This document shows positions 12,221 through 63,882 of a stretch of 63,889 bases of DNA, one piece after another. The position numbers and the translations under genes were made by a program. A model generated the notes under the pieces. It saw only the letters and a list, made by a program, of their open reading frames with translations. It was not told the origin of the DNA and searched no databases. Every line of letters starts with the position of its first letter. The first letter of the stretch is position 1. Source of the stretch: Candidatus Hadarchaeota archaeon (lineage in GTDB: Archaea; Hadarchaeota; Hadarchaeia; Hadarchaeales; Hadarchaeaceae); the NCBI GenBank assembly GCA_040755315.1, contig JBFMBF010000004.1, positions 1 to 63,889 on the forward strand. Direction: 5' to 3'.

Positions 12221-12283
12221 GTCATGCCTCCATCTTCAATCCCTATAGCTGGCAGGGAGTAAAAGTGTAGTCTGGAACCGGCT

Positions 12284-12300
12284 GTTTCACTGACTGAAAC
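12284..12300. promoter_or_regulatory. inverted repeat GTTTCA-N5-TGAAAC in the divergent intergenic region
   Basis: A perfect 6-5-6 palindrome read directly. It lies ~13 nt upstream of the TATA-like element of the wHTH regulator gene, between that gene and the giant surface-protein operon. Confidence 0.25.
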
Positions 12301-12312
12301 GGTGAAAAACCG

Positions 12313-12319
12313 TTTATTA
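12313..12319 (+). promoter_or_regulatory. TATA-like box (TTTATTA) preceded by a purine-rich BRE-like GAAAAAC
   Basis: Centred ~31 nt upstream of ATG 12347. This is consistent with a leaderless or short-leader archaeal transcript. Confidence 0.3.
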
Positions 12320-12346
12320 GTTTATGCTTAGCTCTATTGGTGGCCT

Positions 12347-18087: not shown

Positions 18088-18140
18088 CCGCGAGCGGCCC
18101 CAAACTTATTAAGCCACATGCTTTATCAAAAAGTGGTGAT

Positions 18141-21828: not shown

Positions 21829-21842
21829 CCAACCTCTTTGGA

Positions 21843-22733: not shown

Positions 22734-22768
22734 TTAACGGTTGCTTACGAGACTTTCGCGCCGGACGC

Positions 22769-23443: not shown

Positions 23444-23490
23444 AGATACTCCAAATAATGTTCTGAAAACTTTGTAATTAGCTTAACTGA

Positions 23491-24165: not shown

Positions 24166-24236
24166 AACTAAACTTCTGGCGGGCGTATTTAGCTTTCTAC
24201 ACGTGGCCCACTTTTTGATTCAGATACGCCGAACCG

Positions 24237-24902: not shown

Positions 24903-24928
24903 AATAAATTAAAACTAACGTAATTAAC

Positions 24929-25705: not shown

Positions 25706-25749
25706 GTCATCCTCCTGTTTTATTCATTTGCCAAACCAAACTATATAGT

Positions 25750-26610
25750 GTGGTGATGCACTCTCCAAACTGTAGCGTGGCGGGTCCCCAAAAATCACGA
25801 GCCCTATTCAGCGCGAGCGGGTGGGCCTATTTGAAGTTATTGGTTGTAATATTATTTGTCGGAATTTTCGTGGCTGCTCCTGTTTTAACAATTTTAGGGC
25901 GTTATCCTAACTCGGGAAAGCGTACATGGACCTGGCAAGATACAATGCAGGAGAATAATTTAATAACTGGAGAAAAAACTGCCAAAACAATAACTGTTGT
26001 GGGGGGGCACCTTGAAAATAGAACTGTTAGCGGCGAGAACTATGAAGTTTACAAGTTTGTTTACATGGACCGTTCAAACGATTATGTTTTAGTGTATTAT
26101 TCTCCTCCCAACGACAATAGGGTTTTTTGGCAAAAATTTGAAGAAATTTACCGCGATGGATCAAAAATATCCGAGAGAGTTTGGAGCAAACCTCTTTTGG
26201 AATATGAACTGCCTCCGCAGCCGGGAAACACTTTCTCGGATTCTACAGACTACACGTTCACTTATTTTGGCTATGGAGGATATTCCGGAAGCGGCCAAAT
26301 GATGATTTCCGTGGAGGTGGTTCGTAAAGAAAACGTGACTGTCCCTGCCGGCACCTTTGAATGTTATTTATTGCGCGCTTCCGTCTCCAGAACTTATAGT
26401 TCGACTGTTTCCGGCTCAACGATTCAAGGAAACGTAAGCTATGTGGAAAATATCTGGATTTCACCACAAAACCTTACTCAAGCAACTGAGTATCAAACCA
26501 CCTACGTTAAAACAGTGCGTGATGAGACAGACACGGCAACTAAGGGGGACCAAACCACTTACAATACGACAAGACACTACGAATCTGTATTGACTAATTA
26601 TGCTCCTTAA
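25750..26610 (+). CDS. membrane-anchored beta-rich protein of unknown function
   Basis: N-terminal TM LKLLVVILFVGIFVAAPVLTIL followed by a ~230-aa Tyr/Thr/Ser-rich ectodomain. By eye the gene is A/T-rich relative to the flanking arg genes. Confidence 0.5.
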   Translation: MVMHSPNCSVAGPQKSRALFSASGWAYLKLLVVILFVGIFVAAPVLTILGRYPNSGKRTWTWQDTMQENNLITGEKTAKTITVVGGHLENRTVSGENYEVYKFVYMDRSNDYVLVYYSPPNDNRVFWQKFEEIYRDGSKISERVWSKPLLEYELPPQPGNTFSDSTDYTFTYFGYGGYSGSGQMMISVEVVRKENVTVPAGTFECYLLRASVSRTYSSTVSGSTIQGNVSYVENIWISPQNLTQATEYQTTYVKTVRDETDTATKGDQTTYNTTRHYESVLTNYAP

Positions 26611-26737
26611 TGAATCAATGGATAAATTTACGTAGAAGCAAAACTTGGTTACGGCACACACAACTTTAAAATCACATTTGCGATGGGCCGACAAGACCAA
26701 CCTTTAAGAAAGCTGCGCCCATTTGAAATTTGAGCAG

Positions 26738-27970
26738 ATGATAACCGTTCTGGAGGGTGGAATAACAGAAGCCCCCGGCTTCAAGGCCGCCGGGGTCAGG
26801 GCAGGGATAAAGAAGCGCGGCCTAGACATCATGCTTTTGGTTTCCGAAGACGGCCCCGTCACGGCCGCGGGGGCTTTCACAACCAACCGCGTCCAAGGCG
26901 CTCCGGTCATTGTAACCAAGGAACACCTGAAGAAGGGAAAACTTGGGGCAATCGTGGCCAACTCCGGGATATCGAACGCATACACTGGAAAGAGGGGCCT
27001 CAGGGATGCATACAAGATGGCGCAGGTCGCCGCGCGGCTGCTCAAAATCAGGGCCGCGAATGTCGGGGTCGCCTCGACTGGCCTGATCGGCGCCTACATG
27101 CCGATGAAAAGAGTGGAGGCGGGTATCAAGGCTGCGGCGAATGAGCTTTCAAACTCGCGGGAGGCCAGCCTCAACGCCGTGAAGGCAATAATGACGACCG
27201 ACACCATCCCGAAGGAAGTGGCGCTCCGCGTGGATCTGGAGGACGGCATGACCGCGACGATAGCCGGAATCGCGAAGGGTGCCGGGATGATCTGCCCGAA
27301 GATGAAAACGGCGACCATGCTGACATTCGCCGTCACGGACGTCTCGATAACTTCCGATGCCCTGAAGGCTATGCTGCAGAAGGCTGTCGACAAAAGCTTC
27401 AATATGGTCAACATCGACAACGACACCAGCACAAGCGACATGGTGGTTGTGATGGCCAACGGGCGGGCAAAGAACCGCCGCATAACACTCGACCGCATGG
27501 ACCGGCAGTTCCAGGCGGGCTTCGAGCATGCGCTAACAGAGCTGGCGTGGATGATAGCTGGGGACGGCGAGGGGGCGACGCGCCTGATAGAGGTGCAGGT
27601 CACCGGAGCCCGCAACATCGCGGAGGCCAGGCTGGCGGCGAGGGCGGTGGCCGGCTCCAACCTGGTCAAGTCGGCGGTGTTCGGCAAGGACCCCAACTGG
27701 GGGAGGGTAGTGGCGGCCCTAGGTTACTCGGGGGCAGTCTTCGACCCAAAGGACCTCAGCTTGGAGCTCGAGGGCGAGAGGGGGAGCGTGGAGCTCGTGC
27801 ACAGGGGGAGGCCGGCCCCGAAGAGGGCGCTGGCGAGAGGCAGGGACATCATGAAAGGCAAGGAGATAGAAATCATAGTCAACCTGGGCGCAGGTAAGGC
27901 ATCTGCCACCGCCTGGGGTTGCGACCTGACATACGACTACGTCAGGATAAATTCCAAATACACGACCTGA
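26738..27970 (+). CDS. argJ: bifunctional ornithine acetyltransferase / N-acetylglutamate synthase
   Basis: N-terminus GGITEAPGF, and the autoproteolysis site KTATMLTFAVTD. ATG 26738; the ORF track starts at TTG 26723. Confidence 0.9.
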   Translation: MITVLEGGITEAPGFKAAGVRAGIKKRGLDIMLLVSEDGPVTAAGAFTTNRVQGAPVIVTKEHLKKGKLGAIVANSGISNAYTGKRGLRDAYKMAQVAARLLKIRAANVGVASTGLIGAYMPMKRVEAGIKAAANELSNSREASLNAVKAIMTTDTIPKEVALRVDLEDGMTATIAGIAKGAGMICPKMKTATMLTFAVTDVSITSDALKAMLQKAVDKSFNMVNIDNDTSTSDMVVVMANGRAKNRRITLDRMDRQFQAGFEHALTELAWMIAGDGEGATRLIEVQVTGARNIAEARLAARAVAGSNLVKSAVFGKDPNWGRVVAALGYSGAVFDPKDLSLELEGERGSVELVHRGRPAPKRALARGRDIMKGKEIEIIVNLGAGKASATAWGCDLTYDYVRINSKYTT

Positions 27971-28016
27971 GTGTCAAATTTAATAACATGCAACGCGTGG
28001 AGTCTTTTGTGGTGGA

Positions 28017-28901
28017 ATGCAGGAACGCGCCAAGGTGATGCTGGAGGCCCTCCCCTTCATTAGGGAGTTCCACGGCAAGGTCATAATCATAAAGATAGGC
28101 GGGAGCATCATGGGCGAGGAGAAGCTGCTTGACTCCCTCCTCCAGGATGTCGTCCTCCTCAACCTCTTCGGAATGAAGACAGTGCTGGTCCACGGCGGCG
28201 GCCCAGAGATAAGTGAGGAGATGAAGAAGATGGGGGTGAAGCCGAAGTTCATAGAAGGGCTGCGCGTCACCGACGAGCAAACGATGGAGATCCTGCACGA
28301 GCAGCTGGCCGGGAAGATAAACAAGCAGGTGGTGCTGGGGATAAACCACCACGGCGGGAAGGCCTTCGGGATTTCTGGTATGGACGGAAGCCTCATCCGC
28401 GCGCGCAAGCTTCTCTACAAGACCACCACCAGCAAGGGAAAGGAAGTCGAGATAGACCTGGGGCTGGTCGGAGAGGTGGAGAGGATTGACCCGAGCATCA
28501 TCAACAACTTGGTCAAGGCTGGATGCATCCCCGTGATCGCCCCGATTGGAATAGACATGGAAGGGCACAGCCTGAACATAAACGCAGACACCGTCGCCGC
28601 GGAGATTGCCGTGGCCATGCATGCGAAGAAACTAGTCCTGATCACCGATGTGCTTGGAGTCATGCGCGACCCGAACGATGAAAAAACACTGATTTCAGTT
28701 ATGACGACAGGGGAGGCGCAGAAGCTCATCCAGGAGGGCGTGATCAAGAAAGGAATGATTCCAAAGATAGAGGCTTGCCTCAGGGCTGTACAGAGCGGCG
28801 TCGACCGCGCCCATATCCTGAAAGGCACGGCCCCGCACGTCCTTCTGCTGGAACTCCTGACGGAGAGCGGCGTCGGCACAATGATTGAACGGGGCAAGTA
28901 A
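28017..28901 (+). CDS. argB: acetylglutamate kinase
   Basis: Amino-acid kinase fold motifs KVIIIKIGGS, LVHGGGP and NINADT. Confidence 0.9.
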   Translation: MQERAKVMLEALPFIREFHGKVIIIKIGGSIMGEEKLLDSLLQDVVLLNLFGMKTVLVHGGGPEISEEMKKMGVKPKFIEGLRVTDEQTMEILHEQLAGKINKQVVLGINHHGGKAFGISGMDGSLIRARKLLYKTTTSKGKEVEIDLGLVGEVERIDPSIINNLVKAGCIPVIAPIGIDMEGHSLNINADTVAAEIAVAMHAKKLVLITDVLGVMRDPNDEKTLISVMTTGEAQKLIQEGVIKKGMIPKIEACLRAVQSGVDRAHILKGTAPHVLLLELLTESGVGTMIERGK

Positions 28902-30086
28902 ATGGACGTCGAGAAGCTGACCGGGCGCTACATCGCGCGGACCTACAAGCGCCAGCCTCTGACGCTGGTGAAGGGGCGTGGGATGCATGTCTGGGACACG
29001 CGCGGAAAGAAGTACTTGGACTTTGTCGGTGGGATAGCCGTCTGCGCGCTTGGCCACTCGCACCCTGACCTTGTGAAAGCCATTTCAAAACAGGCGGGGC
29101 AGCTAATCCACACTTCAAACCTTTACTACATACAGAGGCAGGCAGAGCTGGCGGAGCTTCTGGTCACGGTGACGCCGGCCGAAATAGACAAGTTCTTCTT
29201 CTGCAACTCGGGCGCCGAGGCGAACGAGGGTGCTCTGAAGCTTGCAGTTAAACGAACGAAGCGCTCGCGCATAGTTGCAATGATGGGCGCTTTCCACGGC
29301 CGTACGGCGCTGACGGTGGGGGCCACCTGGAAAGCCCAATACCACGAGCCATACCGGGCGATCATCCCGGATGCAATAGCCTTCATACAGTACAACAACC
29401 TCGACGCCGCCGAGAGCGCCATTGATGAAGACACTGCCGCGGTGATAGTCGAGCCTGTCCAGGGCGAGAGCGGCGTCAACATCCCGTCGAACGATTACCT
29501 GCCGGGGCTGCGGAAGATATGCGACGATCAGGGCGCGCTCCTGATTTGCGACGAAGTCCAGACTGGGATGGGCCGCACGGGAAAATGGTTCGCCTGCCAG
29601 CACTGGAAGGTTGAGCCGGACATCATGACGATGGCCAAAGCGCTGGGCGGCGGTTTTCCAATCGGGTGCATGGGGGCGAAAGAAAAAATCATGAACTCGT
29701 TCGCTCCGGGGGATCATGCGTCTACCTTCGGGGGGAACCCGCTCGCCTGCTCCGCAGCTATTGCCGTCATCAAAACAATGAAGAAACTGAAGTTGCCGGA
29801 AAGGGCCGCAAAGATGGGTGGTTACTTCACGGAGCGGCTGCAGGAGCTGGAAGAAAAGCACGGCTGCGTGAAGGATGTGAGAGGGCTCGGGCTGATAATC
29901 GGGATGGAGCTCGACGAGAAAAAGAAAGCCGAGAGAGCCGTGGAGATGGCTCGCGGGCATGGCTTCCTGATAAACTGCACGGCCGATAAAGTTCTGAGGT
30001 TTGTCCCGCCGTTGATTGTGGAGCGGCAGCAAATAGACAAGCTTATAGATGCTCTTGACGGCATCCTGACGGAGGTGGAAAAGTGA
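28902..30086 (+). CDS. argD: acetylornithine aminotransferase (class III PLP aminotransferase)
   Basis: Motifs [27 protein letters not shown] and [12 protein letters not shown] (PLP lysine). It starts immediately after the argB stop. Confidence 0.9.
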
Positions 30087-31012
30087 AGGTCAAGCATGTG
30101 CTCAGCATACAGGATTTGAGCGGCGCCGAGATTGAAAAAATCCTGGACATTTCGGACAAACTCAAGAAAGAGGTGAAGGCTGGGAAGCCGCACGAGCTCC
30201 TCCACGGCAAGACGCTCGGCATGATCTTCGCCAAGCCGTCAACCCGCACGAGGGTCAGCTTCGAGGCTGGCATGACCCAGCTTGGCGGGCATGCACTTTA
30301 CCTCGGAATTAACGATTTGCAGCTGGGCCGTGGCGAGACGATAGGCGACACTTCCAGAACTCTATCAAGATATGTCGATGCGGTGATGGCTAGGCTCTTT
30401 GCACACAAGGACATCGAAGAACTAGCGAAGCACTCTTCTGTTCCCGTGATAAACGGCCTTACCGATAAGCACCACCCATGCCAAACTCTGGCCGACCTGA
30501 TGACAATCCGCGAGAAAATTGGACGCCTGAAAGGTGTCAACGTGGCTTGGGTGGGCGACGGCAACAATGTTTGCAACTCCCTGATGCTTGGCTGCTCTCT
30601 CGTCGGGGCAAACTTCCGCGCAGCCTGCCCCAAGGGCTACGAACCATCAAAAGATGTCGTGGCCCAGGCGGTTGAAAATTCCAAAAAATCCAGCAGCAAG
30701 ATTGAAATTTTAAACGAGCCGGAAAAAGCCGTGAGGGGCGCGGATGTCATCTATACAGATGTGTGGATATCAATGGGCCAAGAAAAGGAGACTGAGCAGA
30801 AAATGAAAGTCTTCGGCCCCTACCAGGTGAACGCCAAGCTGGTGAAGCTGGCCAAGCCAAAGGCCATAGTCATGCACTGCCTGCCCGCCCACCGCGGCCT
30901 CGAAATAACCGACGAAGTGATCGACGGCCCGCACTCCGTCGTCTGGGACCAGGCAGAGAACAGGATGCACGCACAGAATGGGCTGCTTGTCCACCTCCTG
31001 AGCAAAAAGTAA
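30083..31012 (+). CDS. argF: ornithine carbamoyltransferase
   Basis: Canonical motifs FAKPSTRTR, HPCQTLAD, DVWISMGQE and HCLPAHRG. It overlaps argD by 4 nt. Confidence 0.9.
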   Translation: MKVKHVLSIQDLSGAEIEKILDISDKLKKEVKAGKPHELLHGKTLGMIFAKPSTRTRVSFEAGMTQLGGHALYLGINDLQLGRGETIGDTSRTLSRYVDAVMARLFAHKDIEELAKHSSVPVINGLTDKHHPCQTLADLMTIREKIGRLKGVNVAWVGDGNNVCNSLMLGCSLVGANFRAACPKGYEPSKDVVAQAVENSKKSSSKIEILNEPEKAVRGADVIYTDVWISMGQEKETEQKMKVFGPYQVNAKLVKLAKPKAIVMHCLPAHRGLEITDEVIDGPHSVVWDQAENRMHAQNGLLVHLLSKK

Positions 31013-55419: not shown

Positions 55420-55836
55420 ATGAAGCTCAAGCTCAAACAAGGGGATTTAAAAGCGATTGCCGCCCATGCTCTGAAAAGCTACCCGAAGGAGGGCTGCGGC
55501 GTTCTTCTTGGAAACTTTAAGAAAAATGCAATCGATGTCATGGAAGTCGTGGAGGCGAAGAATGTCAAGGGCTCGCCAGTGGAGTTCGAGGCAGACCCAC
55601 AGCTGGTGTTTGAGGCATTCAAACGGGGGGAAAAGAAGGGGCTGGACCTCGTTGGGATTTACCACTCACACCCGAATATGGGCGCATTTGTAAGCTCAAG
55701 AGACGCCGAAATTATGAAGCTATGGCCGGGGACGGCGTGGCTGATCCTCGGTGTTGCAAAAAACAAGGTTGATGAACAAAAGGCCTACATTTTGAAAAAC
55801 GGCGTTATAGAAGAACTTGACATTGAAGTCAGCTGA
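55420..55836 (+). CDS. JAMM/MPN+ metalloprotease (ubiquitin-like protein/sulfur-carrier C-terminal peptidase type)
   Basis: Upstream Glu in YPKEGCGVLLG, and the JAMM motif HSHPNMGAFVSSRD (HxHx7Sx2D). Size of 138 aa. Confidence 0.85.
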   Translation: MKLKLKQGDLKAIAAHALKSYPKEGCGVLLGNFKKNAIDVMEVVEAKNVKGSPVEFEADPQLVFEAFKRGEKKGLDLVGIYHSHPNMGAFVSSRDAEIMKLWPGTAWLILGVAKNKVDEQKAYILKNGVIEELDIEVS

Positions 55837-55861
55837 AGCGCACACATGAAAATTATCTTGG

Positions 55862-56614
55862 CTAGGCACCATAGTTTTTGTGCTGCTCAAAAGTTTCAGA
55901 GAAAATTTTGGATGAAGACGGCGGGCCGAACAGCTCTGGGATTTTACCGAAAGCGCCAAAATATTTTTCCCTGATAACCAAGCACCCCTTTATTTCAGGA
56001 ATGAGCTTTGCCCGTTCAAGCCCGCGCCCCACCGACTCTGCCAGGTCGCTGCCCTTCACGGCGTTAGCTATCGAGGTCGCGGCGGCGTCGGCCAAGGCAG
56101 CATCCCTAGCGACCACGGTCACTGCATCGGCCTCTCCAAAGCTCATGGAGTGACCAACCGTGCCCGAACTCGTGCAAATCCCTATCGGCAACTCGGCTGG
56201 GCGAACCAAGAATCCTATTTTTCCAGGTCCATCCGCGCCGCCGGCGAAAATCCCGACTCGAAACTCCTGGTTACCCGCGATTGCTATGTCTCCTCCGTTT
56301 TCAATTATCACGTTTTTGGCGCCGACGCTCAGAGCCGCTTCGGCCGCCACCTGCGAAATTGCACCGGCGACAGCTGCAAACGGCCCTACCTCAGCAAGCC
56401 CAGCTGCCTTTAGCATGAGTTCGATGACACGCGGATACTTTCTTCCAAGTTCCAAGGGCTCAAGCGACCACCGGAATTCTGGGTTCGTTACAATGAGCCC
56501 TTCGACTTCCCGCCTAGCCTGCAAGCTGGCATCGATTGCAGCGTCAATCGCCCGCTCCTCGTCGCACTTTATGAGCAGGCTGGTCTCCTTGAACGACCAC
56601 CTTTTCTCGTACAA
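55862..56614 (-). CDS. UPF0280 / COG2122 ApbE-related protein
   Basis: Sequence ..GPFAAVAGAISQVAAE..NGGDIAI..ICTSSGTVGHSMSFGEADAVTVV.. The TTG start at 56614 is preceded by GGTGG. The ORF-track start at 56779 would overlap the upstream gene by 157 nt. Confidence 0.6.
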   Translation of the reverse strand: MYEKRWSFKETSLLIKCDEERAIDAAIDASLQARREVEGLIVTNPEFRWSLEPLELGRKYPRVIELMLKAAGLAEVGPFAAVAGAISQVAAEAALSVGAKNVIIENGGDIAIAGNQEFRVGIFAGGADGPGKIGFLVRPAELPIGICTSSGTVGHSMSFGEADAVTVVARDAALADAAATSIANAVKGSDLAESVGRGLERAKLIPEIKGCLVIREKYFGAFGKIPELFGPPSSSKIFSETFEQHKNYGA

Positions 56615-56622
56615 ATGACCAC

Positions 56623-57024
56623 CTAGAACTTCTGCAGCTCCAGCGCCCTGACGGGACAGGACGGCAGGCAGAGCTCGCAGTAGATGCACTTGTCCTCGTC
56701 CAAGTCTATCGAGTTGTCGCCAGTCAGGTGAAGTGCCCCCGTAGGACAGAGGGACAGGCAGGCCCCGCAGTCCATGCACGATTTCCTGTCAAGCTGTATC
56801 GCCTGCTTGATTTCCCTGAGTTCAACTCCCTTTTTCCTGAACAGCTCTATCGCCGCGTCCACTTCTTTGTTTGGGGCGTCCACCGCGAGCAGAATCTTGC
56901 CCCCGGCAGAGTCGAACTCGGCGTAGAGAATGTTGAAAAGCAGCCCTGTCTCCTTGATGACCGACGACAGGACGGGCTCGGCTGCCCTTTGCGGGCTGTA
57001 CTCGATGAGCATCTTTCTTGTCAT
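56623..57024 (-). CDS. NIL domain + 2x[4Fe-4S] ferredoxin protein (MA1822-type partner of the COG1900 homocysteine enzyme)
   Basis: N-terminal NIL-like domain, then CMDCGACLSLCP and CIYCELCLPSCP. It overlaps the upstream gene by 4 nt. Confidence 0.8.
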   Translation of the reverse strand: MTRKMLIEYSPQRAAEPVLSSVIKETGLLFNILYAEFDSAGGKILLAVDAPNKEVDAAIELFRKKGVELREIKQAIQLDRKSCMDCGACLSLCPTGALHLTGDNSIDLDEDKCIYCELCLPSCPVRALELQKF

Positions 57025-58526
57025 CTCTCTCCCTTCTCCAGCAGTCTCGAAAGGTCGCTGCTTGTTATTATTCCCTTGAGCTCACCTTTCTGGCCGACGA
57101 CAGGCACCCCGGATATCCAGTGCTTGTCAAGCTTCCTCGCCACCGAGTCCACCGGCTCATCCTCCAACGCCGTGATCACCTTGTGAGTCATTATCTCCGC
57201 CAGCCTCTCCTTCCCGGTGCCGACTGCCGCAGTTATGTCCCATGACGTAACTATCCCGACCAAACGCCCGACATCATCGACGATTGGAAGATGGTCAAAC
57301 TTGCGTTCTGTCATTGTCTTCGCCGCGCTGAAGATGGTGTCTGAAGGCTTGGCTGTGACTACATCCCGCGTCATCAGGTCCTTGACGGACGGGGCTGCCG
57401 CGGCCTGCTTCATCGGCCTGAAGACCTGAGTCGCCGACAGCAGGCGGGCTGGCTGTGACAGGACAAACTTGCCCTCGCCAATCCATTTCTCAAGCTCCGC
57501 TGCAATTTCTCGCGCCATCTTCAGGCTGCTCAATGGACTCACCTTAACTTTTTTGCCATTGATATCTATGCTCCCGGACTTCAGCTCGGCGTAAGTCACT
57601 TCCCTGAGCACTGGCCTGTCCCTTCTCGGGACGCCGTAGTCCAGCAGGTTTGTCTTTATGTCCTCATCGCCAGCGCCCGCAGTCTTCGCGACCCGCTCGT
57701 TTATCACTGGGATCGGGATGCCCAGCCCGACGTAGAGCGTGGTGCCGTACTTCTCGACCGTCGCGCCCCTGATGTATCGCGGACTCATCTCCTTGAGGTC
57801 GCCGACGGTCATGATGGTCCCCATGGCCTCCTTCGGGGCGTGCTGCGTCCCTTCCCAGAAGATGAAACCTTGGGCGCCGCCGAGGAAAATCCTTGTCCCG
57901 ACCCCAACCGTCTCGTAGTTCAGGTCCTTGTGGAGGGGGCTCAGGCAGCCGGCGCCGGAAAATGTAACGTTGCCGTGGTCGGGCAGAAGCGTCCCCATGT
58001 ATGTGTAGATGGTCTCGCGCCTAGAGTTCGTGCCCGCGGCATATCTCTGGTATGAATTGCGTGGGTTGCATAGAACGGCCTGGTTCAGATCATCGATGGT
58101 GAACTTGACGTTAATATCCCTCCGCGAGTAGCAGTCCGTCCCGTAAGCGCTGCCCCTCAGCTCCACCTCCATTCCTTTGAGAAGGTCTTCCATCACGTGG
58201 CCCCCTCCGTACTCAAAACCAAGCGTTCTGGACATGGAGGTCGCGCCGAGATAAGTGTCAACGGCGGCCAGGCCAGCGTAAGCCGGGACATCGTTGAGGT
58301 AGACCTCCCCCCCGCCCAGCTTTATCGGCGGGTCAGCGTGCCCAAAGTTCAAAAAGGCGCCGGAGCTGCACATTGCCCCGAATGTGCCCGTGGTCACGAC
58401 GTCGACCTCCTTCGCGGCCCCGACCTCCCCCTTGCTTCTGACGATCTCTACCATTTCCTCTGCCGTGACCACGACTGCGTCGCCACGCCTGATTTTTTCA
58501 TTTATATCCGCCACAGACTTGTTCAC
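57021..58526 (-). CDS. COG1900 (DUF39) + tandem CBS protein, L-aspartate semialdehyde sulfurtransferase-like (MA1821-type)
   Basis: N-terminus ..INEKIRRGDAVVVTAEEM..VDVVTTGTFGAMCSSGAFLNFGH.. is typical of DUF39. The C-terminus has two CBS repeats (..MTRDVVTA.., ..MTHKVITA..). Confidence 0.8.
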   Translation of the reverse strand: MNKSVADINEKIRRGDAVVVTAEEMVEIVRSKGEVGAAKEVDVVTTGTFGAMCSSGAFLNFGHADPPIKLGGGEVYLNDVPAYAGLAAVDTYLGATSMSRTLGFEYGGGHVMEDLLKGMEVELRGSAYGTDCYSRRDINVKFTIDDLNQAVLCNPRNSYQRYAAGTNSRRETIYTYMGTLLPDHGNVTFSGAGCLSPLHKDLNYETVGVGTRIFLGGAQGFIFWEGTQHAPKEAMGTIMTVGDLKEMSPRYIRGATVEKYGTTLYVGLGIPIPVINERVAKTAGAGDEDIKTNLLDYGVPRRDRPVLREVTYAELKSGSIDINGKKVKVSPLSSLKMAREIAAELEKWIGEGKFVLSQPARLLSATQVFRPMKQAAAAPSVKDLMTRDVVTAKPSDTIFSAAKTMTERKFDHLPIVDDVGRLVGIVTSWDITAAVGTGKERLAEIMTHKVITALEDEPVDSVARKLDKHWISGVPVVGQKGELKGIITSSDLSRLLEKGER

Positions 58527-58542
58527 TTGTGTCGCCGTGCCA

Positions 58543-58791
58543 TCACCCCTTCTGGATTAAAATCCTCCACTCGTGCGCCCCAGTCTTTTCCACATTGAGA
58601 ACCTTGTGGCCCTCGTTCTCCATGCTCCGCGGGACGTTCTCGATCGCTGGGGCGTGGTCCACAATCACCTCGAGCACCTGGTCTCTCTCAAGCTCTTCTA
58701 TGGCAAGCTTGGACTTTACGAAGGTGTACGGGCAGACCTCGCCGCGGATGTCTATTGTGCGGTCAACCTTTGTCAGAACCTCACCTCGCAT
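58543..58791 (-). CDS. TusA/SirA-like sulfurtransferase
   Basis: An 82-aa protein with the conserved Cys-Pro motif in IDIRGEVCPYTFVKSK. It overlaps the E1 gene by 19 nt. Confidence 0.8.
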   Translation of the reverse strand: MRGEVLTKVDRTIDIRGEVCPYTFVKSKLAIEELERDQVLEVIVDHAPAIENVPRSMENEGHKVLNVEKTGAHEWRILIQKG

Positions 58792-59669
58792 ACGTGACCG
58801 TAGTCCACCTTTGAGAGGTCAGTGATTGCCGGTTTGTCTCCGCAGGATGGGCAGCCCTTGTTTCTCTGAAGCTCGAACTCCTCGAACTTCATGCTTGCGG
58901 CGTCGAAGAAGAGCACCCGGCCCACGAGAAGGTCGCCCGCGCCCAGCAGGTACTTTATCGCCTCGGTGGCCTGGATTGCGCCCACCACTCCCGGCACCAC
59001 CCCGATCACCCCGGCCTCCTGACATGTCGGAATCATCCCAGCTGGCGGCGCCTCCGGCGTCAGGCACCTGTAGCAGGGGCCCTTCCTTGGTACCACCGTG
59101 AGCGCCATGCCAGTGAAGCGCAGCACCCCCGCGTGGGAAAATGGAACACCTCCCAGGACACATGCGTCGTTGACGAGGAATTTCGTGGGGAAATTGTCGC
59201 TGCCGTCCACAACAAAGTCCCAGCCCTTGATTACGTCGAGAGCGTTGTCCGGGCCGAAGCGCTGGTTGTGCGTAACGACTTCGACTTCTGGATTAAGCTT
59301 AGCGATTGTCTCCTTGGCAGACTCAACCTTCGGCCTGTCGATGGTGGGTGTGGAGTGGATAATCTGTCTCTGGAGGTTGCTCAGGTCAACATTGTCGCAG
59401 TCGATTATGCCGAGCCTTCCGACGCCCGCCGCCGCCAAGTAAAGGGCCGCTGGCGAGCCAAGACCTCCAGCACCTACAACAAGGACTTTGGAGTTCAGGA
59501 GCTTGCGCTGCCCCCTGCCGCCTACTTCCTTCAGGATTATCTGGCGGCTGTATCTCCTGATTTGCTCCTCGCTGAAACCTTGAAAGTCCCCAACTGCCAC
59601 TTTTTTATTTGCCAATCGCTTCACCCTCACCAAACAGTCTCTTGCTAAAACCCTAAAAATCTCAGCCAC
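58773..59669 (-). CDS. MoeB/ThiF/UbaA-type E1-like adenylyltransferase (no rhodanese domain)
   Basis: Motifs RYSRQI, the ATP loop VLVVGAGGLGSPAALYLAAAGVG, DLSNLQRQ, the Zn pairs CYRC and CPSC, and the catalytic-Cys region PTCQEAGVIG. The GTG start overlaps the carrier's GGTGGCTGA. Confidence 0.9.
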   Translation of the reverse strand: MAEIFRVLARDCLVRVKRLANKKVAVGDFQGFSEEQIRRYSRQIILKEVGGRGQRKLLNSKVLVVGAGGLGSPAALYLAAAGVGRLGIIDCDNVDLSNLQRQIIHSTPTIDRPKVESAKETIAKLNPEVEVVTHNQRFGPDNALDVIKGWDFVVDGSDNFPTKFLVNDACVLGGVPFSHAGVLRFTGMALTVVPRKGPCYRCLTPEAPPAGMIPTCQEAGVIGVVPGVVGAIQATEAIKYLLGAGDLLVGRVLFFDAASMKFEEFELQRNKGCPSCGDKPAITDLSKVDYGHVCEVRF

Positions 59670-59952
59670 CTGCGACCGCCGGGATCAGCCTGACCTCGGC
59701 TCCCTCCTCGAGCCTGGTGTCCAGCCCCTGCAGGATCCTTATGTCCTTGCCGTTGACGAAGACATTCACGAACCTGCGCAGCCCCCCAGTCTTGGGGTCG
59801 AGCACCCGCTCGCCGAATGGCGGGCCGAACTTTTTAATCAAGGCGTCGACGAGGCCTTTCACCGTGTCGTCTACCAAGTCAACATTGGTCTCCGTGACCC
59901 CGACGAAGTCCTTAAACATCACGGAAAACTTCACATTCACTCCTACCATCAC
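59662..59952 (-). CDS. ThiS/MoaD-family beta-grasp sulfur-carrier (ubiquitin-like) protein ending in Gly-Gly
   Basis: A 96-aa protein whose C-terminus ..VRLIPAVAGG is followed directly by TGA. It overlaps both neighbouring genes. Confidence 0.8.
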   Translation of the reverse strand: MMVGVNVKFSVMFKDFVGVTETNVDLVDDTVKGLVDALIKKFGPPFGERVLDPKTGGLRRFVNVFVNGKDIRILQGLDTRLEEGAEVRLIPAVAGG

Positions 59953-61214
59953 GCCACCTCTAACCAGTTCACTCCTGGAGTTTTAAGCTTCGACACCAGC
60001 TCCTTGAAGCTCTCTAACGTCGGCTCGATCTTGAAAGGTTTTGGAAGGGAAGGAGCGATGCTCTCCTGCGTCTTGAGGCCGTTGCCGGTGATGTAGAGAA
60101 CCACCTGCTCGTCGCGGTCGACCTCGCCGTCCTCGACAAGCTGCTTGAGCGCTGCCACTGTCGTCCCGCCAGCGGGCTCCGTGAAGACTCCCTCGGTCCT
60201 GGCCAGCAGCCTTATACCCTCGATTATTTTCTCGTCGCTGGGCGCCCTTCCGCTTCCCTTGGTATCGCGCACGGCCTGGATGGCGTAGTAGCCGTCTGCG
60301 GGGTCGCCTATGGCCAATGACTTGCAGATGGTCTCTGGCTTTTCCACGGGGATTATTCCGTTCGACCCCCGCAGGAGGGCCTGCACCACCGGGGAACACC
60401 CCTCGGGCTGGGCGGCCGAAAGCCTCGTGCTCCACCCGTCTATCAGACCAACCTCCTTGAGCTCGTTCAGCCCACGCAGGGCCGCGTGGAGCAGGGCGCC
60501 GGAAGCAACCGGGACAATTATGTGGCCCGGCGCCTTCCATCCCAGCTGCTCGCAGACCTCGAAAGCCAGCGTTTTCGATCCCTCCACATAGTATGGGCGG
60601 ACGTTGATGTTGGCGAAGGCGATGTTGCTGGAGACAGCGATCTCGGTGGCGAGCCTGTTGGCCTGGTCGTAGGTGCCAGCGACTTGGATGACGTTGGCCC
60701 CGTAGGCGAGCGTCTGGGCGATCTTGGAAGTCTCGAGGCCCTCCGGGATGAAGATGAAGCAAGGCAGGCGGGCCTTCGCGGCGTGCGCAGCCATCGCCCC
60801 TGAAAGGTTCCCTGTGGACGCCGCGCCTACAGCGGGAGAGCCGAACTCTATGGTCCTTGAAACCGCCACGCTGGAGGGGCGATCCTTGAATGAAAAGGTG
60901 GGGTTTACCGAGTCGTTCTTGACGTAGACTTCCCTCAGGCCGAGTTCATGTGCGAGATTGTCCGCCTTCAAGAGGGGGGTGTACCCCGCCCCGATGTCGA
61001 CAATGGACTTTTCATTCTCAACTGGCAGGAGATCCTTGTAGCGCCAGATGGTCGGGGGGCCGCGGGCAATGGACTCTCTCGACACTTTCTCGGCGATAGC
61101 CGCATAGTCGTAGGCGACGTCGAGCGGCCCAAAGCACAGGCTACAGGCGTGGACTATCTTCTTCGGGTAAGTCTCGCCGCACTCCCGACACCTCAGTCCG
61201 GTCACTTCCGTCAT
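59949..61214 (-). CDS. threonine synthase-family PLP enzyme with N-terminal zinc ribbon (ThrC, cysteate synthase or MetM-like; not resolved)
   Basis: N-terminal Cys motif LRCRECG...CSLCFG, the PLP-lysine motif PTFSFKDRP, and a Gly-rich loop ..PVASGALL.. Length of 421 aa. Confidence 0.85.
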   Translation of the reverse strand: MTEVTGLRCRECGETYPKKIVHACSLCFGPLDVAYDYAAIAEKVSRESIARGPPTIWRYKDLLPVENEKSIVDIGAGYTPLLKADNLAHELGLREVYVKNDSVNPTFSFKDRPSSVAVSRTIEFGSPAVGAASTGNLSGAMAAHAAKARLPCFIFIPEGLETSKIAQTLAYGANVIQVAGTYDQANRLATEIAVSSNIAFANINVRPYYVEGSKTLAFEVCEQLGWKAPGHIIVPVASGALLHAALRGLNELKEVGLIDGWSTRLSAAQPEGCSPVVQALLRGSNGIIPVEKPETICKSLAIGDPADGYYAIQAVRDTKGSGRAPSDEKIIEGIRLLARTEGVFTEPAGGTTVAALKQLVEDGEVDRDEQVVLYITGNGLKTQESIAPSLPKPFKIEPTLESFKELVSKLKTPGVNWLEVA

Positions 61215-61345
61215 TTTGCCACCTCAAAACCCAGTGAAATTTCTAGTTATACTTTAAAAGGATGTTCATTACTGGAGGTTGTATAACGCAGAGTGCTTAA
61301 AACCAAAGTATTTTTGGAAGAAGGACAACATTTTCATGGTGAACC

Positions 61346-61968
61346 TTGCCAAAAGACGGGGGTACAAGGGAACGCTGGGACTTCATTTACAGGACTCTCC
61401 CTCCGGAGGAGATCCCTTGGGAGGCTGGCAGGCCGGACCCGGACCTGGTGACGCTTGTGAGGAAAAAGAAGATAAAGAAGGGAAGGGTCCTCGACACCTG
61501 CGCGGGGCTGGGCACTCACTCAATTTACCTGGCCAAAAGGGGCTTCGAGGTGAGCGGAATAGACATCTCCCCCCCGCCGTCAAGAAGGCTGGCGAACGGT
61601 GCAGGGCGGAGGGGCTGAAGTGCAAGTTCATCTCTGGGGACGCCACGCGCCTGAAGTAGCCGAGCAACCACTTCACCTTCGTCTTCGACCGGGGCTGCTT
61701 CCACCACATCCCTGTTGAAAAGAGGGAGGGGTTCATAAGAGGGGTCCACCGCGTCCTGGCGCCCGGCGGCGGATACCACTTGAGCTGCTTCAGCTACAAG
61801 AACGGCCCCGGGTGGAACCGCTTCACAGAGAAGCAGTTGCGTGACTACTTCGGTTCTTATTTCAAGATAGAGTACATCAAGGAGGCGGTCTACGTCGAGC
61901 CGCCCACTCGTCAGAAGATTTACTTTTACAAAGCTTTCATGACAAAACTGCTGCTCCCCATCAAATAA
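61346..61968 (+). pseudogene. class I SAM-dependent methyltransferase disrupted by a frameshift in a C7 run and an in-frame TAG
   Basis: Frame A gives ..VLDTCAGLGTHSIYLAKRGFEVSGIDIS (motif I). After the C-run at 61569..61575 the homology continues in the -1 frame (AVKKAGERCRAEGLKCKFISGDATRLK). TAG at 61657..61659 follows, and the same frame then continues PSNHFTFVFDRGCFHHI...LAPGGGY... to TAA at 61966..61968. Confidence 0.6.
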
Positions 61969-62057: not shown

Positions 62058-62618
62058 TCACTTCTCGCGCCAGGACTTGATTTCCCCGCCGTACTCGGCC
62101 AACCTGCGCCTTATGTGGAAGTTGCGGAACTTCACCCAGAGCCGCGGGTCCATCCCGTCAAGAATCGCCCGGACCTTCATCCCGCGCTCAAGGGTGGCCT
62201 GGCACTTCATGCTGTGCGGGATGTATCCCATTGAGCCGAGGTAAAACTCGTCGGGGATGCTCTCGCCCTTGTCCATTATCTTGACCTCTTCCAGGGACAG
62301 CCTCTTGCGAAGCTCCTCCTTGTCCTTCCCTTGGTAGTTCTGGATGCAGCACTCGGGGATGCCGAACCAGCGACCGCGCGAGACCGAGTCCGCCCCCCGC
62401 TTTCCAATGTCATTCTCATCGCGGGCGACAATGTAACACCGGCCTTCCAGCTTGAAAACCAGCCCCAGCTTGGCCATCAGGCCCTCAAGCTCCCTGTCAA
62501 CGCCGCGGCAAATCTCAGACCCTGTTTTCAGTCCGTTGGCCGTCATCAAGATATCAACCACGGTTGTGGGTGGCTGCTTCAGCAACAGGTCCACAAGTTC
62601 TTTGTTCATCCTGACCAT
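62058..62618 (-). CDS. hypothetical protein (Cys-containing, no recognised family)
   Basis: The ORF has ordinary globular composition (..WFGIPECCIQNY.., ..GYIPHSMKCQ..). The start is uncertain (ATG 62654, 62618 or 62609). It is divergent from SepCysS. Confidence 0.45.
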   Translation of the reverse strand: MVRMNKELVDLLLKQPPTTVVDILMTANGLKTGSEICRGVDRELEGLMAKLGLVFKLEGRCYIVARDENDIGKRGADSVSRGRWFGIPECCIQNYQGKDKEELRKRLSLEEVKIMDKGESIPDEFYLGSMGYIPHSMKCQATLERGMKVRAILDGMDPRLWVKFRNFHIRRRLAEYGGEIKSWREK

Positions 62619-62688
62619 CTTTCCTTCGGCGGGGGAGTTTTTAACTCTGCACATATATGGATTTTAGAACTGTTCAAGAGTGAGTGGA

Positions 62689-63882
62689 ATGGCCCAAATA
62701 AACCTAGACAAATACAAGAACCTGCGGAGGCTGGTGGACGAGACGTGGATAAATGTCCACCCGATCCAGCGAGGGGGAATACTGCCGCCTGAATCCAGAA
62801 AAACACTGCAGACCTTCGCCGACGGCTACAGCACCTGCGACCTCTGCATTGAGGGAAAAATAGATCTGGTCAAGACGCCGCCGGTCCTGGATTTCGCGGG
62901 CGACCTCGCGAAGTTCCTAAACATGGACGAGGTCAGGTTCACCCCAGGGGCGCGCGGCGCAAAGCAGGCTGTGCTCAGGAGCATAGCCGAGCCGGGCGAC
63001 ACCCTGATCCTGGACTCGTTGGCCCACTACACATCTTACATCGCGGCCGAGGTAAACGACTTGAAAATCGCCGAGGTCCCCCACAGCGGCTACCCGGAAT
63101 TCAAAATAAACGTGGACGACTACGCCGCGAAGATAGAAGAGGTGAAGCGCCAGACTGGAAAGCTGCCCGCGGCCGTCCTCCTGACGCATGTCGACTACCG
63201 CTATGGGAACCTCGCCGACGCCGAGAAGGTGGGGAAGATAGCTAAAGACTACGGAGTGCCCTACATACTGAACGCCGCCTACACGGCGGGGGTAATGCCT
63301 GTCGACGGGAAGAAGATTGGCGCTGATTTCCTCGTCTGTAGCGGTCACAAGTCTTGGGCCGCCAGTGGTCCAATAGGAATTTTGGCTACCACTTACGAGT
63401 TTTCGGGAAAGGTCTTCAGGACATCCTCAATCAAGGGGCCGTGGTCGGGCCGCGCCTTCCTTAAGAAAGATGTTTTTCTCTACGGCTGCCCGCCTGTCTT
63501 CGGGGCGCCTATCACTACCCTCATGGCCAGCTTCCCACACGTCTACAAGAGGGTGCAGCACTGGGGCGAGGAGGTCGACAAGGCCAAGTGGTTCGTCAAG
63601 GAGCTAGAGCGCATAAAGGACTTTTACCAGCTGGGGGAGCGCCCGAGACGGCATACACTCATGACGTTCGAGACGCCGTCATTCCACAAAATATCTAAAA
63701 CCCACTCCCGGAAGGGCTTCTTCCTTTACGAGGAGCTGAAGAAGAGAAAAATTTCTGGAGTTCAGCCCGGGCTGTCGAAAATAATCAAGATGAACACGTA
63801 CGGGCTGAAAAAGGAAGAAATTCAAAAAGTTATCGACGCCTTCCACGAGATTGCCAAATCAAACAAAATCGCGGTGGAGTGA
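62689..63882 (+). CDS. pscS: O-phosphoseryl-tRNA(Cys):Cys-tRNA synthase (SepCysS)
   Basis: N-terminus ..NLDKYKNL...INVHPIQRGGILPPE.., the PLP-lysine motif CSGHKSWAASGPIGIL, and the family length. ATG 62689; the ORF track starts at GTG 62680. Confidence 0.8.
   Translation: MAQINLDKYKNLRRLVDETWINVHPIQRGGILPPESRKTLQTFADGYSTCDLCIEGKIDLVKTPPVLDFAGDLAKFLNMDEVRFTPGARGAKQAVLRSIAEPGDTLILDSLAHYTSYIAAEVNDLKIAEVPHSGYPEFKINVDDYAAKIEEVKRQTGKLPAAVLLTHVDYRYGNLADAEKVGKIAKDYGVPYILNAAYTAGVMPVDGKKIGADFLVCSGHKSWAASGPIGILATTYEFSGKVFRTSSIKGPWSGRAFLKKDVFLYGCPPVFGAPITTLMASFPHVYKRVQHWGEEVDKAKWFVKELERIKDFYQLGERPRRHTLMTFETPSFHKISKTHSRKGFFLYEELKKRKISGVQPGLSKIIKMNTYGLKKEEIQKVIDAFHEIAKSNKIAVE

Follow-up and report, generated by a model that had tools for sequence, protein, structure and literature searches.

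Two homocysteine modules probably joined in one operon of a Hadarchaeota archaeon

The analyzed window, a stretch of 63,889 nucleotides, lies on a contig from a Hadarchaeota archaeon. A sequence-only reading of this DNA had described seven tightly spaced minus-strand genes, a convergent JAMM gene and a nearby SepCysS gene, and ORF checks and profile searches confirmed all of these gene calls, their domains and their spacing. Read 5' to 3' on the minus strand, the operon order was ThrC-like, ThiS-like, E1, TusA, COG1900-CBS, NIL-ferredoxin and COG2122. Start codons were refined from relatives and Shine-Dalgarno sites, and the features of the locus are as follows.

55420..55836, plus: JAMM/MPN+ metalloprotease, Mec/HcyD/desampylase-like (Prok-JAB 1.6e-20)
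55862..56614, minus: COG2122/UPF0280, predicted MA1715-like sulfur-trafficking helper, ApbE-related (PRK04334 236.8 bits)
56623..57024, minus: NIL domain plus 2x[4Fe-4S] ferredoxin, predicted MA1822-like electron-supplying subunit (NIL 2e-9; two Fer4 stretches)
57021..58526, minus: COG1900a (HcyBio/DUF39) plus CBS pair, predicted L-ASST large subunit, MA1821/MJ0100-like (HcyBio 3.5e-139; CBS 6e-31)
58543..58791, minus: TusA/SirA-like sulfurtransferase (TusA 2.1e-23)
58773..59615, minus: E1-like adenylyltransferase, ThiF/MoeB/UbaA family (ThiF 1e-82)
59662..59949, minus: ThiS/MoaD-fold sulfur carrier, MetO-like (PF02597 3e-11; ends AVAGG-stop)
59949..61214, minus: ThrC-fold PLP enzyme of MetM type, predicted thiocarboxylate-dependent homocysteine synthase (PALP 3e-71; TIGR00260 293.8 bits)
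61248..61259, minus: TATA-like box TTTTAAAGTATA, candidate operon promoter seen in the sequence itself, with the ThrC-like ATG ~34 nt downstream
61346..61947, plus: TPMT-like SAM methyltransferase, inactivated (the intact L166 gene aligns to it by tblastn as two HSPs in different frames)
62058..62654, minus: DUF483-family protein (PF04467 26.3 bits, cut-off 25), divergent from SepCysS
62680..63882, plus: SepCysS, Sep-tRNA:Cys-tRNA synthase (PRK09331 567 bits; TIGR02539 502 bits)

The TATA-like box upstream of the ThrC-like gene was the single clear one among the cistrons and was followed by a GAGGTG Shine-Dalgarno site, and each of the seven cistrons had its own GGTG-type site. The longest ThiS-like ORF starts at GTG 59952 (59662..59952); comparison with L166 and L001 makes ATG 59949 the most likely start, in which case the ThrC stop and ThiS start overlap as TGATG. 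The longest E1 ORF (58773..59669) overlaps the ThiS gene by 8 nt, and the most likely E1 start, TTG 59615 with its Shine-Dalgarno site, leaves a 46-nt gap. The COG1900 stop and NIL-ferredoxin start overlap as ATGA, COG2122 starts at TTG 56614, and the JAMM gene converges on the operon end across a 25-nt gap. From this layout, we infer that the seven genes are co-transcribed: the one TATA-like promoter would yield a polycistronic mRNA with stop/start overlaps.

Beyond the promoter, the TPMT-like gene carried two lesions, a frameshift from the loss of 1 nt in a C-run and a premature stop where TAC became TAG. DUF483 homologues were kept at the same position in the Hadarchaeota relatives L001, L086-089 and L166 (53-88% identity). 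SepCysS adjoined ThrC-like or E1 modules in L001, L004, L086-088, L090, L097, L099, L104, L111, L166 and L169-177.

The ThrC-like protein has an N-terminal four-cysteine zinc ribbon (C9, C12, C24 and C27). A phylogeny against canonical ThrC had been set as a check beforehand, and grouping with housekeeping threonine synthases was not seen: the protein fell within a zinc-ribbon, ThiS-linked clade, split with 100/100 bootstrap support from the solved ThrCs 2zsj, 6cgq and 2d1f and from second ThrC paralogues (same-locus copies in L013, L083 and L085). The tree was built without any verified S. albulus MetM/MetO sequence, a point against the MetM reading. A small ThiS-like ORF lay directly downstream of the clade's ThrC-like gene in 79 of 85 genome loci and in 63 of 80 metagenome loci, many of the contigs behind the latter count being truncated, and the carrier gene was linked to the ThrC-like gene in both bacteria and archaea. 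In 9 of the 11 bacterial loci tested, the SAM riboswitch RF00162 directly preceded the ThrC-like gene in the same orientation (55-91 bits), and the window protein shared 50-57% identity with bacterial homologues that have such riboswitches upstream. Twenty residues are fixed in the ThiS-linked clade and different in canonical ThrC, including the substitutions STGNT>STGNL and GNAGN>ASGAL; they fall in ThrC motifs that are otherwise invariant, and the window protein has all 20.

The MetM/MetO/Mec/MoeZ system makes homocysteine, the precursor of methionine, from O-phosphohomoserine, and annotations often mistake MetM for a threonine synthase (GapMind 2026 preprint). One cyanobacterial ThrC, whose gene neighbors a metO-like gene, shares 51.6% identity with S. 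albulus MetM, and a Microcystis homologue had threonine-synthase and deaminase activity in vitro (PMC12172450). That threonine-synthase activity and the NCBIfam threonine-synthase scores of the window protein are points against a homocysteine-synthase reading. Judged by its sequence, this is no housekeeping threonine synthase but an enzyme matching the MetM/MetO-type thiocarboxylate route, an analogy that the sequence-only reading had drawn and that the clade and the riboswitches of its bacterial members bear out.

The products of the adjoining genes would be the partners of this enzyme. The E1 was 69-93% identical to its Hadarchaeota orthologues; it has CYRC...CPSC zinc motifs and a PTCQEAG loop cysteine, and no rhodanese domain was found in it by domain search. 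The only cysteine of the TusA-like protein, Cys20, lies in a CP motif, and the protein is presumed to be the persulfide donor in place of the missing rhodanese domain, as SirA replacing rhodanese has been described (Iyer et al. 2006, PMC1779556). The JAMM motif was present (E...HSHPx7Sx2D; E24...HSHPNMGAFVSSRD), and since the carrier already ends in GG-stop, JAMM would be unneeded for carrier maturation in the window. The same study described a neighborhood of ThiS, E1 without rhodanese, SirA and JAB tied to sulfur assimilation, and the relay gene set proposed for the window is of that type. Across Hadarchaeota loci, the E1-TusA pair followed by a convergent JAMM gene was conserved; JAMM came after TusA in L001, L086, L088, L089 and L169-174, and after COG2122 in L166.

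The ThrC-like protein might instead be a housekeeping threonine synthase, with ThiS, E1 and JAMM forming a general SAMP/UbaA or MoaD/MoeB system (tRNA thiolation, tungsten/molybdenum cofactor or protein conjugation) that simply lies beside sulfur-metabolism genes. The protein passed two threonine-synthase models (TIGR00260, 293.8 bits, cut-off 167; PRK08197, 311.8, cut-off 303), the carrier passed moaD_arch (52.9 bits, cut-off 49.5), the E1 passed the MoeB subfamily model PRK05690 (287, cut-off 266), and no second ThrC-family or ThiS-family gene was found within the 64-kb window. The E1-TusA-JAMM set kept in L169-174 without a nearby ThrC or ThiS gene would also suit a general-purpose E1. However, the 100/100 split holds against canonical paralogues coexisting in the same loci, all 20 clade-specific substitutions are present, the bacterial orthologues are under SAM riboswitches and not threonine control, and bacterial and archaeal loci alike pair the carrier gene with the ThrC-like gene. 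The carrier and the E1 also missed the SAMP1 (54.5 bits, cut-off 60) and UbaA (355.6, cut-off 450) equivalog cut-offs, and no MoaE gene was found near the operon. We consider this explanation very improbable.

It is similarly improbable that the ThrC-like/carrier pair makes another thiol, for example cysteine from O-phosphoserine as in CysM/CysO, and complements SepCysS. SepCysS is a recurrent neighbor of archaeal ThrC-like/ThiS modules, two homocysteine routes in one operon look redundant, and motifs invariant in canonical ThrC are remodeled; yet the characterized family member, MetM, uses O-phosphohomoserine, the protein comes closest in fold and sequence to ThrC, an O-phosphohomoserine user, and not to CysM/CysK, and the riboswitches point to methionine, not cysteine. 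A point against the MetM-type route itself is that homoserine kinase, homoserine dehydrogenase and methionine synthase genes were not found within the 64-kb window.

The last three genes of the operon, COG1900-CBS, NIL-ferredoxin and COG2122, correspond to the methanogen-type L-ASST route, a gene trio that has been documented (PMC5764234, PMC12068725). The CBS pair matched the MJ0100 CBS structures 3kpb/3kpc at 5e-31, and Cys53 and Cys132 of the COG1900 protein may correspond to the conserved Cys54/Cys131 (PMC12068725). COG2122 matched PDB 2o34 at 2.8e-31 and ApbE weakly (24 bits); relatives' copies are called PF27030 AbpE_bact. The data suggest, with a probability of about 0.65, that the locus is a sulfur-amino-acid island in which one operon now unites two homocysteine modules that are conserved separately.

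We infer the following chemistry for the two modules. In the MetM/MetO-type route, the E1 would adenylate the ThiS-like carrier at its C-terminal Gly-Gly, and the TusA Cys20 persulfide, standing in for the rhodanese, would turn the acyl-adenylate into a thiocarboxylate. The ThrC-fold enzyme would then eliminate phosphate from O-phosphohomoserine and add the carrier thiocarboxylate at C-gamma, and JAMM would free homocysteine from its adduct with the carrier; where relatives have the carrier fused to E1 or tailed, JAMM would also mature it. In the L-ASST route, COG1900 (Cys53/Cys132) and the NIL-[4Fe-4S] ferredoxin would form homocysteine from aspartate semialdehyde and reduced sulfur, with COG2122 helping sulfur trafficking and the CBS pair possibly providing SAM-type feedback.

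The seven-gene fusion was found only in the window and in the close relative L166 (GCA_040757795.1), which has the same 11-gene layout at 90-94% protein identity, and neither five other Hadarchaeota loci nor ~160 other ThrC-like loci had it. Conservation of the unit is lineage-specific: the full gene order was kept in L166 alone, and the COG1900 trio was placed elsewhere in other Hadarchaeota, away from the ThrC-like module. This confinement to two close genomes was counted against the two-module operon reading. Divergence was similar across all genes, which argues for internal rearrangement and not foreign DNA.

Other layouts in Hadarchaeota and relatives place COG1900 or SepCysS genes beside ThiS/E1 genes, the clearest being L177, where COG1900-CBS, NIL-ferredoxin, COG2122, ThiS (GG-stop), ThiF and SepCysS form a same-strand run of six genes, each junction a gap or overlap of <=15 nt, without a ThrC-like gene. 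In L167, the trio is followed by a ThiS ending GG+KVR; L169-174 have the trio, SepCysS, TusA, convergent JAMM and an E1 that shares 72-74% identity with that of the window, and neither a ThrC-like nor a ThiS gene lies within 6 kb; and in L175/176, COG1900, NIL-ferredoxin, a ThiF-family gene and SepCysS all overlap. These layouts speak for a single pathway unit in place of two parallel routes, in which the carrier thiocarboxylate or a TusA/E1 persulfide would be the physiological sulfur donor for COG1900/NIL-ferredoxin, SepCysS and the ThrC-like enzyme, and how L-ASST obtains its sulfur in vivo is still under discussion (PMC12068725). We regard this as possible but doubtful. The ThiS and E1 beside COG1900 in L167 and L177 are paralogues, not orthologues, of the window pair (29-35% and 46% identity, respectively), the L175 ThiF-like protein is without zinc motifs and loop cysteine, and in L168 and L178/179 no E1 adjoins the trio. 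The Methanosarcina and Desulfovibrio L-ASST pathway runs on sulfide with no reported carrier (PMC5764234, PMC12068725), and loci L167-L179, chosen as the nearest COG1900 relatives, are not phylogenetically independent. Of the earlier proposal that one relay feeds both enzymes, the window locus alone was insufficient support; what plausibly stands comes from the relatives' layouts (L167, L169-174, L177), with partly different ThiS/E1 paralogues.

On the reading of two joined modules, the window is a novel arrangement of already known systems, not a new system. None of the papers searched joined COG1900/SepCysS with ThiF/TusA, consistent with the novelty proposed for the joint unit. A sulfur supply common to COG1900 and SepCysS is a plausible hypothesis. 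The main interest of the locus lies in the hint from relatives' gene layouts that cysteine and homocysteine enzymes may both draw on a ubiquitin-like sulfur carrier.

The best-supported reading of the locus is that a single operon, under one promoter and next to SepCysS, would unite a MetM/MetO-type thiocarboxylate route to homocysteine with an L-ASST route (that of L-aspartate semialdehyde sulfurtransferase), by analogy with characterised systems. The ORF listing of the window placed seven close-packed minus-strand genes at 55862-61214, in the order ThrC-like enzyme, ThiS-like carrier, E1, TusA, COG1900-CBS, NIL-ferredoxin and COG2122, with SepCysS on the upstream side, 1.47 kb from the operon start. 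The convergent JAMM gene and the carrier gene were read as follows:

55420-55836, plus strand, JAMM peptidase (Prok-JAB), convergent on the operon, metal motif intact
59662-59949, minus strand, ThiS-like carrier, start probably ATG 59949, C-terminus AVAGG-stop

Pfam and NCBIfam assigned PALP/ThrC, ThiS, ThiF-type E1, TusA, HcyBio (COG1900) with two CBS domains, NIL with two Fer4 stretches, COG2122 (PRK04334, ApbE weak), Prok-JAB and SepCysS, and confirmed the ORF and domain identifications of the sequence-only reading throughout. From the junctions and the relatives, the ATG at 59949 gives ThiS a TGATG overlap with ThrC, the E1 probably starts at TTG 59615 after the Shine-Dalgarno site GGTGAGGGTGA, which leaves a ThiS-E1 gap of 46 nt, and COG2122 starts at TTG 56614. 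Each cistron has a Shine-Dalgarno-like site of its own, and the only obvious TATA-like box, TTTTAAAGTATA, lies ~34 nt upstream of the ThrC-like ATG. Bacterial-type promoter and terminator models, applied here to an archaeal host, gave matches at or below the shuffle expectation. An Rfam scan found no riboswitch or other regulatory RNA in the window or the Hadarchaeota loci, the sole match being one tRNA at locus L167. No second ThrC-family or ThiS-family gene was found within the window, and the window ORFs compared with Pfam included no homoserine kinase, homoserine dehydrogenase or methionine synthase. The closest homologues came from Hadarchaeota/Hadesarchaea MAGs (94% identity for the ThrC-like protein, 90% for COG1900).

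The ThrC-like protein is a fold-type II PLP enzyme (PALP 3.4e-71) with its Schiff-base lysine, K110, in an SFKDR motif that is invariant in the clade alignment. No exact match to it is on record; homologues of 50-60% identity are widespread in cyanobacteria, Chloroflexota, Acidimicrobiia, Nitrospirota, Nitrososphaerota, Bathyarchaeia and others. When a genome collection was scanned with the clade alignment, the matches listed were mostly bacterial and thaumarchaeal loci, not Hadarchaeota. By tblastn, a ThiS-like ORF lay directly downstream of the homologue in 79 of the 85 genome-derived loci listed and in 63 of 80 metagenome loci, where many contigs end early. A SAM riboswitch was located immediately upstream, on the same strand, in 9/11 bacterial loci scanned with Rfam, which puts the family under methionine/SAM control. 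At the Chloroflexi locus L013, which has no SAM riboswitch, a T-box leader (7116-7542, 104 bits) was observed just downstream of the ThrC-like/ThiS pair, and a PYLIS_3 match was observed at 5418-5517 of L007, another homologous locus.

At three loci there is also a second ThrC paralogue, which is shorter, 35-38% identical and without the N-terminal extension. In a neighbour-joining tree these second paralogues grouped with the threonine synthases solved from Aquifex, Bacillus and Mycobacterium, and the window protein formed one group with all ThiS-linked proteins, split from the solved ThrCs with 100/100 bootstrap support. The comparison with canonical ThrC had been set beforehand; no firm grouping with housekeeping threonine synthases was found, and the MetM/MetO analogy drawn from the window sequence proved apt. 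The window protein is ~40% identical to 2zsj, 6cgq, 2d1f and 1uim, in alignments that begin only at residue ~55. An N-terminal four-cysteine ribbon is invariant in the ThiS-linked clade, where 20 positions are fixed differently from canonical ThrC. Motifs invariant in ThrC are changed in the clade (STGNT to STGNL, VNPxRxEGQ to VRPYYxEGS, GNAGN to ASGAL and GNPASW to GDPADGYY), and the canonical STGNT, VNPxRxEGQKT, GNAGN and GNPxSW are all four replaced in the window protein. In Thermus ThrC, Thr88, Ser155, Arg160 and Asn188 are what we take to be the phosphate-binding residues. The protein passed the curated ThrC models TIGR00260 (293.8 bits, cut-off 167.1) and PRK08197 (311.8 bits, cut-off 303); evidently, the NCBIfam threonine-synthase models do not discriminate MetM-type enzymes from ThrC, and 'threonine synthase' is the label given to the clade by the sources naming these proteins. 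A PDB sequence search returned no solved MetM or COG1900 domain; its matches were confined to canonical ThrCs, the MJ0100 CBS pair and, for COG2122, 2o34.

According to the GapMind 2026 preprint, MetM of Streptomyces albulus is a ThrC homologue that makes homocysteine from O-phosphohomoserine and the MetO thiocarboxylate, assisted by the JAMM peptidase Mec and the E1 MoeZ, and MetM is often misannotated as threonine synthase. PMC12172450 describes a SAM riboswitch upstream of S. albulus metM and a cyanobacterial ThrC homologue, adjoining a metO-like gene, with 51.6% identity to MetM; the link to MetM runs through this identity, the tree having been built without S. albulus MetM/MetO. Because of the ThiS linkage, the SAM riboswitches, the tree split, the motif changes and the MetM literature, the window protein was filed as MetM-type, a predicted homocysteine synthase. 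As in the S. albulus MetM/MetO/Mec/MoeZ system (Hasebe et al. 2024, as cited in these two sources), the gene for a ThrC-fold PLP enzyme is followed directly downstream in the window by one for a ThiS-type carrier, with an E1 and a JAMM peptidase also present, and bacterial members of the clade share the upstream SAM riboswitch of metM. Unlike that system, the window module has an archaeal host, has no riboswitch that we could find, is co-operonic with the COG1900 pathway and pairs TusA with an E1 that lacks the rhodanese domain of MoeZ. A further difference is the GG-stop end of the window carrier.

The gene for the rhodanese-less window E1 is followed by TusA, and the JAMM gene converges on the operon from beyond the trio of COG1900-CBS, NIL-ferredoxin and COG2122. 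The same four-part set is found in sulfur-assimilation neighbourhoods in which SirA was proposed to replace rhodanese (Iyer et al. 2006, PMC1779556), and the window genes correspond to type 4e of that paper (rhodanese-less E1, SirA/TusA, JAB peptidase and ThiS/MoaD carrier). Wolinella HcyS/HcyF/HcyD/MetY and the type 4e neighbourhoods (PMC1779556; Krishnamoorthy & Begley 2011) share with the window a carrier, a rhodanese-less E1, SirA/TusA and JAMM. MetY uses O-acetylhomoserine, whereas the window PLP enzyme has the ThrC fold, its presumed substrate being O-phosphohomoserine, and the window carrier, unlike HcyS, has no C-terminal tail to remove. A further point in common is that sulfite reductase genes lie near the modules of relatives. 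Genes for NIR_SIR sulfite-reductase-like proteins, DUF169, extra TusA, DsrE and glutaredoxin recur round the modules at L001, L002, L004 and L168-L174, which are of the ThrC-like/ThiS or the COG1900/SepCysS kind and come from different lineages of archaea.

In the CysO/CysM/Mec+ system of Mycobacterium, a phosphorylated amino acid gives rise to the PLP-bound intermediate that the carrier thiocarboxylate attacks, and the Mec+ JAMM hydrolyses the CysO adduct. By this precedent, the window JAMM would hydrolyse a carrier-homocysteine adduct. Operons of the CysO/CysM/Mec+ type are type 4d in PMC1779556; the window differs from them in that its product would be homocysteine, not cysteine, and in that its PLP enzyme, unlike CysM, belongs to the ThrC-like family. 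In five Hadarchaeota relatives (L001 at 11268-12371, L086, L087, L088 and L089) carrier and E1 are joined in frame as a 367-residue fusion (AVAGG-SEFLGF), whose Gly-Gly end a protease would have to expose; a Ubl-E1 fusion was noted earlier in Thaumarchaeota (PMC2948915). Carrier and E1 are separate genes in the window and in L166, a close relative. Since the window carrier is split from its E1 and ends GG-stop, adduct hydrolysis is the more likely role of JAMM there. Across Hadarchaeota, the most constant unit was E1-TusA followed by a convergent JAMM (L001, L086, L088, L089, L166 and L169-174). A third ThiS-family paralogue, without a C-terminal Gly-Gly and ending in PPGASD or PPEETTGKSASV, was seen at L001 (15214-15498), L088 and L177 (9252-9554), and in several Hadarchaeota is kept near the module and beside the argG cluster.

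Like Haloferax SAMP/UbaA/HvJAMM1, the window has an archaeal rhodanese-less E1, a beta-grasp carrier ending in GG and a JAMM. The best NCBIfam matches of these proteins were the SAMP/UbaA/desampylase models, all below the equivalog cut-offs (SAMP1 54.5 bits against 60, UbaA 355.6 against 450, desampylase 65.4 against 130). Unlike Haloferax SAMP/UbaA, the window genes are set among amino-acid biosynthesis genes and show no sign of a role in protein conjugation. Subfamily models for MoaD/MoeB were passed (moaD_arch 52.9 bits, cut-off 49.5; PRK05690 287 bits, cut-off 266) and the equivalog models were failed (moaD 17.4 bits, cut-off 66; moeB 217 bits, cut-off 377); a MoaE was likewise absent from the window ORFs compared with Pfam.

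The COG1900a domain of the window matched HcyBio at 3.5e-139, with Cys53 in GAMCSSG and Cys132 in GTDCYS as the two conserved cysteines (Cys54/Cys131 in MA1821), and scored 149.5 bits on the MMP16 model (cut-off 364); its CBS pair closely resembles the MJ0100 pair. The NIL + 2x[4Fe-4S] protein and COG2122 adjoin it, and the trio is kept as a unit in L166-L179. Genetic work in Methanosarcina and Desulfovibrio shows that homocysteine synthesis there requires these NIL-ferredoxin and COG2122 partners (PMC5764234, PMC12068725); neither of the two papers mentions a carrier/E1 link to the L-ASST genes. The window has the same three proteins, with the two conserved cysteines, as MA1821/MA1822 + MA1715 and Desulfovibrio DUF39/NIL-ferredoxin/COG2122; unlike MA1821/MA1822 + MA1715, its trio lies directly downstream of TusA, in the carrier/E1 operon. 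From the chemistry of these characterised homologues, we infer that the window trio would provide an L-ASST-type route, with homocysteine made from aspartate semialdehyde and reduced sulfur.

The full window layout recurred in one close relative only, L166 (GCA_040757795.1), as SepCysS, DUF483, methyltransferase, ThrC-like, ThiS, E1, TusA, COG1900-CBS, NIL-Fd, COG2122 and convergent JAMM. In L001, L086, L088 and L089, JAMM directly follows TusA and no COG1900 gene was found within 10 kb; in the genome of L001 the trio is ~24 kb away, at L167. The gene order of the sequence-only reading thus stood in L166 but was absent from the other loci compared, with COG1900 or COG2122 nearby in 0 of ~160 other ThrC-like loci, and the physical fusion of the trio with the ThrC-like module is lineage-specific. 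The trio diverges from its relatives as much as the flanking genes do, so the simplest history would be an internal rearrangement that placed it between TusA and JAMM; insertion of the trio as foreign DNA was set aside on the same ground.

Context look-ups of COG1900 homologues gave eight arrangement groups, the loci being related, not independent.

Arrangement groups of COG1900 homologues, with presence of ThiS/E1 within 7 kb
Window and L166: ThrC-like, ThiS, E1 and TusA, with the trio fused on after them; yes
L167: trio, with a second ThiS paralogue (C-terminus GG+KVR) following; yes
L168: trio alone, with an L167-type ThiS paralogue 4 kb upstream; yes
L169-171: trio, DUF169, SepCysS, orthologous E1, TusA and convergent JAMM, without ThrC-like/ThiS; yes
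L172-174: layout as L169-171; yes
L175/176: overlapping run of COG1900, NIL-Fd, divergent ThiF-family gene and SepCysS; yes
L177, 3086-8005 (GCA_038851075.1): COG1900-CBS, NIL-ferredoxin, COG2122, ThiS (GG-stop), ThiF and SepCysS; yes
L178/179: trio with SepCysS close by; no

A ThiS or E1 gene was present within 7 kb in seven of the eight groups, in varying order. The tightest carrier/E1 link to methanogen-type Cys and Hcy enzymes was seen at L177, where the six genes lie on the same strand with gaps or overlaps of at most 15 nt and without a ThrC-like gene. The ThiF-like protein of L175 lacks zinc motifs. One possibility, at odds well below even, is that in Hadarchaeota, and perhaps in further archaea with SepCysS, the E1/TusA relay makes a ubiquitin-like carrier thiocarboxylate from which COG1900/NIL-ferredoxin (for homocysteine) and SepCysS (for cysteine) would draw their sulfur physiologically. 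The recurrent pairing of COG1900/SepCysS with ThiS/E1 is the main support for such a shared donor, under which the window and L177 operons would be two solutions to the same wiring. The single coupled relay proposed from the window sequence is plausible as a hypothesis, and the fusion is confined to one lineage. The ThiS and E1 proteins of L167 and L177 are paralogous to the window pair. No report linking COG1900/SepCysS with carrier/E1 (ThiF/TusA) genes was found in the literature searched, which is consistent with the sequence-only reading that the two homocysteine routes had not been described as one unit. Mukai et al. (2017) describes clade VII SepCysS as accompanied by 'a few sulfur metabolism genes', nothing more specific, and the searchable text of its supplements has no mention of ThiF, MoeB or DUF39 near SepCysS.

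Between SepCysS/DUF483 and the operon lies an inactivated TPMT-like SAM methyltransferase gene (61346-61947, plus strand), in which, relative to the intact 203-aa gene of L166, a C-run has lost 1 nt and a TAC has become the stop TAG; at L168, a methyltransferase 27% identical to it lies next to the second ThiS paralogue. The DUF483-family gene (62058-62654, minus strand) is divergent from SepCysS, 25 nt apart, in a position kept in Hadarchaeota relatives, and its product could act as a regulator or as a partner of SepCysS. An arginine cluster at 18084-31012 (argG, argH, argC-like semialdehyde dehydrogenase, argJ, argB-like, argD-like and argF) is broken at 21843-25705 by several minus-strand genes, three of the rhomboid family. 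Since L001 and L177 keep the arginine cluster only a few kb from the sulfur module, the region is rearranged in the window. Two adjacent very large ORFs at 3468-12220 on the minus strand (1156 and 1755 aa), with DUF4785 C-terminal-domain and CARDB matches, probably encode surface proteins.

Both homocysteine routes are recent discoveries and poorly annotated, and the window locus places the ThrC-fold route firmly in archaea, in Hadarchaeota, Bathyarchaeia and Nitrososphaerota among others. Of the leads, the most valuable is that in Hadarchaeales carrier/E1 genes are repeatedly paired with COG1900 and SepCysS. Carrier, E1, TusA and JAMM recurring beside COG1900/SepCysS yield a concrete hypothesis on the sulfur supply to L-ASST and SepCysS. 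If the shared-supply hypothesis is wrong, the locus would still be a clear example of two redundant homocysteine modules under common control.
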